A DNA stretch of 64,000 nt from Enterobacter phage vB_Ecl_id4496. Under the pieces are notes generated by a model, which saw nothing but the letters and a program-made list of their open reading frames with translations, made no database searches and was not told the origin of the DNA. The stretch lies in sequence record PQ824230.1; one strand, written 5' to 3'. This document shows positions 62,587 through 62,671 of the stretch, one piece after another. The position numbers and the translations under genes are program-made. Position 1 is the first letter of the stretch. Every line of letters begins with the position of its first letter.

Positions 62587-62671
62587 GGGTCGTTGGCTGA
62601 GAGGGTAAGCGGCGGACTGTTAATCCGTGTCAGAAATGACTAGGCAGGTTCGATACCTGCACGACCCGCCA
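62587..62671 (+). tRNA. class II (Ser-type body) tRNA with anticodon GTT (Asn codons)
   Basis: 85 nt. D-arm TG-GCT-GAGAGGGTAA-AGC resembles tRNA-Ser. 15-nt variable arm, G73, CCA. The anticodon arm GCGGA-CTGTTAA-TCCGT is identical to E. coli tRNA-Asn. Confidence 0.55.

Follow-up and report, generated by a model that had tools for sequence, protein, structure and literature searches.

In bacteria, tRNAs with a long variable arm (class II tRNAs) are described for serine, leucine, and tyrosine, plus selenocysteine (PMC7609411, PMC9976931). Bacterial asparagine identity lies in the three anticodon bases and the discriminator G73. Serine identity lies in the size and orientation of the long arm, helped by G73 and acceptor pairs, and seryl-tRNA synthetase (SerRS) ignores the anticodon (PMC9976931). 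The PARIS nuclease AriB cuts the tRNA-Asn(GUU) of Escherichia coli, as a secondary target, between positions 40 and 41 (PMC12409363). Here we analyze a tRNA-Asn(GUU) gene with a hairpin in its variable region, found in a 64,000-nucleotide (nt) stretch of Enterobacter phage vB_Ecl_id4496 (record PQ824230.1) that is called the window below. At roughly three chances in four, the gene encodes a functional phage tRNA-Asn that is charged by asparaginyl-tRNA synthetase (AsnRS), decodes AAC/AAU, and has a class II-like body with the geometry of tRNA-Tyr.

The tRNA-Asn gene and its extra arm

ARAGORN calls a tRNA-Asn(gtt) at exactly 62587-62671 (+), 85 nt long including an encoded CCA. The Rfam tRNA model RF00005 matches 62587-62668 as a full-length cloverleaf (model positions 1-71 of 71) with 49.8 bits, above the gathering threshold of 29 (E = 4e-9), and 12-13 nt of the variable region stand as an insertion in that alignment. 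Close relatives, e.g., phage PG7, annotate the same gene as tRNA-Asn or tRNA-Asx. Its parts are as follows, with the source of each assignment in parentheses.

62587..62671, +, whole tRNA-Asn(GUU) gene, 82 nt up to the discriminator plus the encoded CCA (ARAGORN, Rfam)
62587..62593, +, 5' strand of the acceptor stem, GGGUCGU (G1-C72, G2-C71, G3-C70), pairing with 62661-62667 (sequence)
62594..62611, +, U8, G9, D arm GCU-G-AGAGGGU-A-AGC (3 base pairs [bp] plus G13.A22), and G26 (sequence, arm table, RNAalifold)
62612..62628, +, anticodon arm GCGGA-CUGUUAA-UCCGU, identical to that of host tRNA-Asn (match to the E. coli gene)
62619..62621, +, anticodon GTT, which reads AAC/AAU (ARAGORN)
62629..62643, +, extra (variable) arm GUCAGAAAUGACUAG (pairing, covariation)
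62644..62660, +, T arm GCAGG-UUCGAUA-CCUGC (sequence, covariation)
62661..62671, +, 3' strand of the acceptor stem, ACGACCC, discriminator G73 (62668), and CCA (62669-62671) (sequence)

The 15-nt variable region, GUCA-GAAA-UGAC-UAG, forms a 4-bp stem (GUCA/UGAC) closed by a GAAA tetraloop and followed by the 3-nt linker UAG, with no unpaired base on the 5' side of the arm. This exceeds the 10 nt in a stem-loop that define a class II variable arm. The core also has the class II features G9, G13.A22, and a 3-bp D stem, but the D loop is not enlarged as in class II tRNAs: 1-2 nt follow G18G19, without bases 20a/20b. The branch is the canonical 7/5 (acceptor/T). The extra-arm stem contributes -4.4 kcal/mol to the cloverleaf. 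As is usual for individual tRNAs, the minimum free energy (MFE) fold of the single sequence is not the cloverleaf (-34.0 versus -30.9 kcal/mol). From the anticodon arm outward, CGGCGGACTGTTAATCCGT (19 nt, positions 25-43) is identical to the E. coli tRNA-Asn gene, a reference that was checked by its 100% identity in 5,425 E. coli genomes. A first-pass annotation of the window, made from the letters alone, had therefore read the molecule correctly as an 85-nt tRNA with a 15-nt variable arm, G73, and the anticodon stem-loop of E. coli tRNA-Asn.

The arm was compared across 18 aligned long-arm tRNA-Asn from enterobacterial and Aeromonas phages, and the covariation indicates that its stem is under selection, with pairing kept by compensatory changes. 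All cells of the extra-arm stem (100%) are paired, two-sided changes occur at 4/4 pairs, and the stems seen are GUCA/UGAC, GUCG/CGAC, GUUC/GAAC, AUCC/GGAU, GAGA/UCUC, GAGC/GCUC, GGGU/ACCC, and GAGGA/UCCUC. All five helices covary, including all 7 acceptor pairs, and position 9 varies together with 13:22. Whole-structure covariation was matched by no shuffle and collapsed in slid controls, and RNAalifold independently predicted a five-helix cloverleaf with a 3-bp D stem. In this family the arm always stands directly 3' of the anticodon stem and always ends with exactly three unpaired bases, N-A-N. The anticodon GUU, the CUGUUAA loop, G18G19, the TTCGA T loop, G73, and the encoded CCA are conserved across distant phages. 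Since the CTGTTAA loop is invariant in 18/18 relatives, GTT, which the first-pass annotation had wanted checked against GCT, is not a sequencing error. In a wider set of 109 viral long tRNA-Asn, 81% of the variable regions form a hairpin of at least 3 bp, compared to 30% after shuffling (maximum, 43%), and 52 different arm stem strands occur.

Amino acid identity of the long-arm tRNA-Asn

Isotype sets for comparison consisted of unique viral tRNAs called by ARAGORN in the same loci, examined by acceptor-anchored parsing. The tallies were as follows.

Long tRNA-Asn (n = 109): position 73, G in 102; pair 1-72, U-A in 77 and G-C in 29; pair 2-71, G-C in 47 and C-G in 47; arm mostly 3-4 bp, with 3-4 unpaired bases 3' of it in 77
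Short tRNA-Asn (n = 109): position 73, G in 106; pair 1-72, U-A in 87; no arm
tRNA-Ser (n = 103): position 73, G in 74; pair 1-72, G-C in 89; pair 2-71, G-C in 100; A3-U70 in 92; arm 5-7 bp in 80, with 0-1 unpaired 3' base in 86
tRNA-Tyr (n = 59): position 73, A in 59; pair 1-72, G-C in 52; pair 2-71, G-C in 50; 3-bp arm commonest, with three unpaired 3' bases in 37

By these tallies the class combines an Asn-type acceptor identity with a Tyr-type arm. The window tRNA belongs to the G1-C72/G2-C71 minority of the long tRNA-Asn. The class II-like core is shared by part of the class, with G9 in 45/109 and G13.A22 in 44/109 versus 7/109 and 6/109 of the short tRNA-Asn.

Charging with asparagine by the host AsnRS is most likely. 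The window tRNA has the complete asparagine set (G34, U35, U36, and G73), which is invariant in the 18 relatives, and we infer AsnRS charging because the serine set is present only in part and its acceptor features drift. The tRNA has G1-C72 where most long tRNA-Asn have U1-A72; enterobacterial hosts possess AsnRS, so U1-A72 would not be required in them. That pair is typical of bacterial tRNA-Asn and is needed for GatCAB transamidation (PMC9976931). Tyrosine identity depends critically on U35, and G73 acts against both LeuRS and TyrRS (PMC9976931); the window tRNA has G73 and U36 in place of the A73 and GUA anticodon of tRNA-Tyr.

Profile hidden Markov models (HMMs) made in-house from the ARAGORN sets, standing in for the tRNAscan-SE isotype models, ranked the window tRNA as short Asn (31.2), then Tyr (25.9), with Ser below 12.9 and outside the top eight. 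As a control, the phage's own tRNA-Ser scored 64.3 on the Ser HMM. The serine-type body proposed in the first-pass annotation thus did not hold up, given the Ser score, the Tyr-type arm geometry, and the missing 20a/20b bases, and the isotype-specific modeling that it had suggested placed Asn first with Ser far below. Its likening of the D arm to tRNA-Ser is half right: UG-GC-GAG is shared, but the same GAG start is found in tRNA-Tyr. The phage's own tRNA-Ser has 4 nt after G18G19 versus 1-2 in the window tRNA-Asn. E. coli tRNA-Ser and tRNA-Tyr also have four bases there. With the anticodon masked, the window tRNA scored about equally on Cys, Tyr, and short Asn. When both anticodon and discriminator were masked, the best profiles among the 109 long tRNA-Asn were Ser for 36, Asn for 19, Tyr for 15, and Leu for 14, all with low margins; the members with Ser-like bodies still have short arms with 3-4-nt linkers.

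The first-pass annotation had also raised a recoding or mistranslating tRNA, in which SerRS, alone or with AsnRS, would charge the molecule through its long arm and G73 and insert serine at AAC/AAU. We regard this as very improbable. The Ser-like masked bodies are in keeping with it, as are G73, G1-C72, G2-C71, G9, G13.A22, and C11-G24 of the window tRNA and the indifference of SerRS to the anticodon (PMC9976931). The arm, however, has 4 bp and a 3-nt 3' linker, compared to 5-7 bp and 0-1 nt in viral tRNA-Ser; the 20a/20b bases that orient a Ser-type arm are absent; G3-C70 replaces A3-U70; and the Ser HMM score is low. Pair 2-71 is G-C as in tRNA-Ser, but it is not conserved, being G-C, A-U, or U-A among the 18 close relatives and, in 47/109 of the class, C-G, an antideterminant for E. 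coli SerRS (PMC9976931). In none of the 109 long tRNA-Asn do G1-C72, G2-C71, and G73 occur together with an arm of 5 bp or more and a 3' linker no longer than 1 nt, and the conserved GUU and G73 are what AsnRS requires. Furthermore, no second tRNA-Asn is listed among the tRNAs of the carrier PG7 and Asn makes up 5.8% of genome codons, so systematic Asn-to-Ser replacement would damage the phage's own proteins. In vitro, lengthening the arm stem of tRNA-Tyr by 2 nt together with U9G and A73G reportedly gave serine acceptance (Himeno et al., 1990), and weak serylation is therefore conceivable, which is why we leave a small residual probability for mischarging with serine in this lineage. The other half of the first-pass proposal, a chimeric tRNA-Asn, comes close to the evidence, since an Asn anticodon arm and discriminator are joined to a class II-like core.

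For a tRNA-Asn charged by AsnRS, the proposed course of events is simple. Host AsnRS would read GUU and G73 and charge the phage tRNA with asparagine, and the charged tRNA would decode AAC/AAU during infection by this T4-like Karamvirus. It would supply Asn decoding for an Asn-rich phage proteome, a role that fits the 5.84% of Asn codons in the long open reading frames of the window (AAT and AAC evenly split), and it could replace host tRNA-Asn when defense nucleases deplete the latter. The arm would either hinder the docking of nucleases on the anticodon stem and D loop or be a tolerated class II relic.

Origin and possible function of the arm

AriB has been modeled to touch both the cut site of E. 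coli tRNA-Asn and D-loop bases U16-U17; U16C impairs cutting, and distal determinants were inferred, while the variable arm is nowhere mentioned in that paper (PMC12409363). The window tRNA-Asn keeps the host AriB site, U36AAUC/C41 (the slash marks the cut), but it has A16, and the helix of its extra arm begins 3 nt after the cut. Because the sequence of the cleavage site is unchanged from the host, the arm may hinder docking nucleases. The tRNA-Asn of reference T5 (L360, 5953-6030, -) is a 78-nt class I molecule in which positions 39-41, the AriB cut site, are changed versus the host and the anticodon stem pairs at 3/5 positions (GCAUC/GUUGA). It adjoins rna3, which is annotated as a "putative tRNA-like RNA." We had considered whether the T5 tRNA-Asn of the PARIS study was of the long-arm type; the reference T5 sequence rules this out. 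The T5 data therefore do not bear on the arm, since this tRNA is class I and escapes through a mutated site.

Two other phages of the PARIS study are more relevant to the arm. Through the BASEL supplement they were identified as the T5 relatives HildyBeyeler (Bas33) and SelmaRatti (Bas34). Bas33 carries an intact 86-nt long-arm tRNA-Asn with a host-like AriB site, and it was rescued by T5 tRNA-Lys alone; Bas34 and T5Mos needed supplied tRNA-Asn (PMC12409363). The long-arm tRNA-Asn of Bas34 (L361, 121-203) is decayed: it has U32, the 3' strand of its acceptor stem is broken, and ARAGORN makes no call. GenBank still annotates a tRNA-Asn there, which matters for rescue data in which this copy is counted among the encoded tRNA-Asn. 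Another decayed copy is found in Proteus phage Pm5461 (L358). The contrast between Bas33 and Bas34 fits a long-arm tRNA-Asn that is functional and survives AriB, but it is confounded.

One explanation of the arm is descent, in which it would be a tolerated relic of a class II ancestor, most likely a tRNA-Tyr that underwent an alloacceptor shift (GUA to GUU, A73 to G73), and would persist as AsnRS and the ribosome tolerate it. We consider this a real but tentative possibility, short of probable. The arm of the window tRNA-Asn has Tyr-type geometry, Tyr is its best class II profile, and Asn-long is second-best for the phage tRNA-Tyr; the nearest tRNA in the window is also Tyr, at 64% identity versus 56% for Ser. 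Tyr and Asn genes adjoin in several clusters, with nearly identical acceptor stems in the adjacent pair of phage PNJ1809, and the main differences between the two identity sets lie at position 36 and the discriminator (PMC9976931). Against this, the anticodon-masked window body is about as close to Cys and short Asn as to Tyr, the D arm is unlike that of the neighboring tRNA-Tyr, most long tRNA-Asn have U1-A72, which is rare in tRNA-Tyr, and sequences of tRNA length hold little phylogenetic signal. A single tRNA-Tyr origin for the whole class was not supported by the heterogeneous masked profiles of the 109 members, whose bodies split among Ser-, Asn-, Tyr-, and Leu-like. An anticodon shift from tRNA-Tyr was kept as a plausible origin for the enterobacterial-phage lineage only, and the class as a whole looks polyphyletic or mosaic. 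The other explanation is protection. Here the extra arm and altered D loop would be a putative shield that stops tRNA-targeting nucleases (AriB, OLD-type TOPRIM tRNases, and others) from docking, which would let the tRNA retain the anticodon arm of the host, the optimum for AsnRS, Q34/t6A37 modification, and decoding, yet survive cleavage of host tRNA-Asn. This is possible but on the unlikely side. The AriB footprint on host tRNA-Asn, the unchanged cut site next to A16 and a helix, and the Bas33/Bas34/T5Mos contrast are consistent with it, and reference T5 solved the same problem otherwise, by mutating the site. Extra arms are also enriched in phage tRNA-Asn and co-occur within clusters. In an either-length scan of IMG/VR, 12 of 120 tRNA-Asn-pattern loci were long, ~10% among the matches listed, versus 2.6% of other class I isotypes in unselected loci and 7.6% in clusters holding a long tRNA-Asn. 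A T5-like contig has an armed tRNA-Thr(UGU), another AriB/OLD target. However, the rescue phenotypes could reflect abundance alone, an apparently native chromosomal copy occurs in Solirubrobacterales, where counterdefense is not an obvious driver, and selection that keeps an existing arm paired does not make the arm itself adaptive. It is more doubtful still that a variable-arm helix is a means by which phage tRNAs repeatedly (Asn, also Thr, Cys, Ile, and Met) escape cleaving nucleases. Finally, the tRNA might not serve translation at all: it could act on a host nuclease as a decoy or competitive inhibitor, or the gene could be a pseudogene in decay. Inhibition of AriB by competition from overexpressed viral tRNAs has been raised (PMC12409363), and the copies in Bas34 and Pm5461 show that decay occurs, but the five intact, covarying helices and the conserved GUU, CUGUUAA, G18G19, TTCGA, G73, and CCA lead us to expect a translating tRNA, and we give this reading next to no weight.

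Several points weigh against a functional, AsnRS-charged tRNA-Asn of Tyr-like geometry. Class IIb synthetases approach the tRNA from the variable-loop side, so the arm could reduce AsnRS efficiency. G1-C72, G2-C71, G9, C11-G24, and G73 fit tRNA-Ser as well, and the conversion of tRNA-Tyr mentioned above reportedly took few changes. No aminoacylation or decoding experiment on the long-arm type was found in the literature, and the T5 rescue experiments and the amber-suppressor notes in NC_005859 concern the class I tRNA-Asn of T5. The heterogeneous masked bodies do not support a single Tyr origin. The comparison of Bas33 with Bas34 is confounded by T4 and T7, for which no tRNA-Asn was required, and by differences between the phages in their other tRNAs.

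Distribution, neighboring RNAs, and relation to known tRNAs

The 85-nt query matched 633 cultured-phage records, with 80% or more of its length covered in 547, and almost all are annotated as tRNA-Asn. The matching phages are T4-like, T5-like, and rV5-like and span the genera Karamvirus, Marfavirus, Winklervirus, Epseptimavirus, Tequintavirus, Phapecoctavirus, Justusliebigvirus, and Biquartavirus. Members of 80-88 nt were retrieved from Marfavirus, Winklervirus, Epseptimavirus, other T5-like phages, Phapecoctavirus, Justusliebigvirus, and Biquartavirus, and one 83-nt long-arm tRNA-Asn recurs with 100% identity in 208 T5-like records, T5_ev212 and SP15 among them. Comparison with the tRNA sets of related T4-like phages, as the first-pass annotation had suggested, thus shows a type that recurs widely and is not a one-off. 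A scan of IMG/VR for Asn anticodon arms that precede an extended variable region yielded at least 112 distinct GTT tRNAs of at least 80 nt from at least 120 loci. No full-length counterpart of the window tRNA-Asn was found in 5,426 complete E. coli genomes, where partial matches were to tRNA-Lys and tRNA-Val only.

Cellular assemblies also carry the long tRNA-Asn pattern, in three forms: dense, mobile-element-like arrays of 9-36 tRNAs per 8 kb; Flavobacterium tRNA-Asn genes with a palindromic insert in the variable loop; and lone genes in contigs of Solirubrobacterales metagenome-assembled genomes. The inserts, in five Flavobacteriaceae loci (L232, L266, L274, L278, and L292), are near-perfect palindromes (e.g., CCCGATAGCTATCGGG); some of these tRNA-Asn genes are tandem copies and some have imperfect acceptor stems. 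The palindrome may be a small mobile element or repeat that targets tRNA-Asn. The lone Solirubrobacterales genes encode an 85-nt tRNA-Asn(GUU) with the arm U-GUCC-GAAA-GGAC-GU and a tRNA-Leu-like D arm (L257, 5621-5705, -; also L279, L283, L285, L287, L334, and L347). The L257 copy adjoins a DnaG primase gene, with a helix-turn-helix protein nearby, on an 828-kb contig. This suggests that a class II-like tRNA-Asn is native in the actinobacterial order Solirubrobacterales, where it looks like a housekeeping gene, and housekeeping Asn decoding thus seems to tolerate the extra arm.

The gene itself is not new, as it is annotated as tRNA-Asn in hundreds of GenBank records. We found no published description of a long-arm tRNA-Asn in the full-text literature, although older subscription journals or tRNA databases might hold one. 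It is not described in the reviews PMC7609411, PMC5389517, and PMC9976931, and the word "variable" is never applied to a tRNA in the phage-tRNA defense papers PMC12409363 and PMC13056530 and the OLD preprint. The class II-like architecture of this tRNA-Asn therefore appears to be undescribed.

The window is T4-like Karamvirus DNA: its positions 62100-64000 share 98.7% identity with Enterobacter phage PG7 and match CC31-type phages similarly well. The tRNA-Asn gene lies within the following feature.

62221..63995, +, phage tRNA cluster (ARAGORN, Rfam, PG7 annotation)

The order is Tyr, Ile, Lys, Glu, Asn, Asp, Met, Gln, His, Ser, Trp, a tRNA-like element, and Gly, and in relatives the cluster extends past the window end. 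The tRNA-Tyr(GUA) at 62221-62305 (+) was missed by ARAGORN, scores 39.1 bits with Rfam, has an irregular D region (UAAUUCCGUAGAGGUAGCGGU), and is called "tRNA-Pseudo-GTA" in one relative. The tRNA-Lys(UUU) at 62429-62505 (+) has the anticodon arm CCGGA-CUUUUAA-UCCGG, with C at position 41. The AriB site of E. coli tRNA-Lys is U36AAUC/A41, and A41C substantially inhibits cleavage (PMC12409363), which suggests that the window tRNA-Lys may be an AriB escape variant too. The 243-nt unannotated spacer between tRNA-Asn and tRNA-Asp, 62672-62914 (+), has an MFE of -67 kcal/mol (z = -3.7, mononucleotide shuffles) and may be a structured RNA; spacers 62991-63147 and 63307-63520 show no unusual folding. 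The 95-nt element at 63821-63915 (+) is a "tRNA-Met(cat)" according to ARAGORN and the PG7 record, but its anticodon stem (UGGCC/GAUAA) is unpaired and the Rfam tRNA model does not match it even with the cutoff relaxed to E ≤ 1. A good T arm (CCTGG-TTCGAAT-CCAGG), an acceptor-like stem of 8 bp, and an internal hairpin around the palindrome TGACGTCA are present, the MFE is -33.4 kcal/mol (z = -3.6), and the element resembles a tRNA-like stable RNA, not a tRNA. Several "tRNA-like stable RNAs" are annotated in the cluster of the T5 record.

Irregular arms are found in other phage tRNAs as well. In Epseptimavirus-type clusters (T5-like, SP01-type; L025, 2310 and 4406; L087, 7731), tRNA-Thr(UGU) is 87 nt long with a 15-nt hairpin arm, G9, and G13.A22, and tRNA-Leu(UAG) and tRNA-Leu(UAA) have a variable loop of 5 nt and a total length of only 77 nt. 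With Thr armed and Leu short, the usual class I/class II assignment is reshuffled in these clusters; reference T5 has a 75-nt tRNA-Thr and an 85-nt tRNA-Leu. A tRNA-Ile(UAU) of 90-97 nt, with a long variable arm, the loop motif YYAGAU, and A73, occurred in 16/27 sampled (e.g., viral loci L014, L030, L036, L041, L042, L120, L129, and L166), and armed Cys, Met(CAU), Trp, Lys, Pro, and Ile(GAU) tRNAs are also found in viral loci.

An asparagine tRNA with a conserved, covarying arm is thus common in phages, including model and therapy-candidate T5-like, T4-like, and rV5-like phages. If AsnRS charges it, the enzyme tolerates a large arm and tRNA identity moves between classes by very few changes, which would be relevant to tRNA evolution and to the engineering of orthogonal tRNAs. 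Should the arm keep off nucleases such as PARIS AriB, phages would have a counterdefense of a new class. In either case, inconsistent annotation (tRNA-Asn, tRNA-Asx, no call, or decayed copies entered as tRNAs) can mislead analyses of tRNA complements, e.g., of PARIS rescue.

Set beside known tRNAs, the window tRNA-Asn appears to be built partly like a class II tRNA and to have ordinary tRNA-Asn function. With E. coli tRNA-Asn (asnT/U/V/W) it shares GUU, the CUGUUAA loop, the anticodon stem and G26, G73, and the encoded CCA, features that also carry the Q34 and t6A37 determinants. The E. coli molecule is class I, with a 5-nt variable loop, a 4-bp D stem with C13-G22, A9, and U1-A72, whereas the window tRNA has the 15-nt hairpin arm, G9, G13.A22, and G1-C72; overall identity is 62%. 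With tRNA-Tyr(GUA), the shortest-armed class II tRNA, it shares a 3-4 bp arm with three unpaired 3' bases, G1-C72/G2-C71, and the G34-U35 start of the anticodon with its loop context, but tRNA-Tyr has A73 (59/59), A36, one unpaired base 5' of the arm, and bases 20a/20b, compared to G73, U36, no such base, and a short D loop in the window tRNA. The long arm, G73, G1-C72, G2-C71, G9, G13.A22, and C11-G24 are shared with tRNA-Ser, which differs in its 5-7 bp arm with 0-1 unpaired base, A3-U70, and 4 bases after G18G19 (4 bp with three unpaired bases, G3-C70, and 1-2 bases in the window tRNA).

Allo-tRNAs and the nematode nev-tRNAs cited with them (PMC5389517) likewise join a long arm to the anticodon of a usually class I amino acid, but their identity elements remain those of Ser, Leu, or Ala and determine charging whatever the anticodon, and allo-tRNAs often have an 8/4 or 9/3 branch (PMC5389517). 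The identity set of the window tRNA matches its own anticodon and its branch is 7/5, and it is therefore not of the allo-/nev-tRNA type of misdecoding tRNA. The T5 tRNAs for Lys, Thr, and Asn that counter PARIS AriB (PMC12409363) are also phage copies, in a cluster, of host tRNAs targeted by a nuclease, and, like such defense-replacing sets, the window cluster holds Lys, Tyr, and other targets beside tRNA-Asn. Described escape variants alter bases of the anticodon loop or stem or of the D loop (PMC10264068, PMC12409363); the window tRNA-Asn, in contrast, keeps the host anticodon arm exactly and differs in its D loop and in the added helix.

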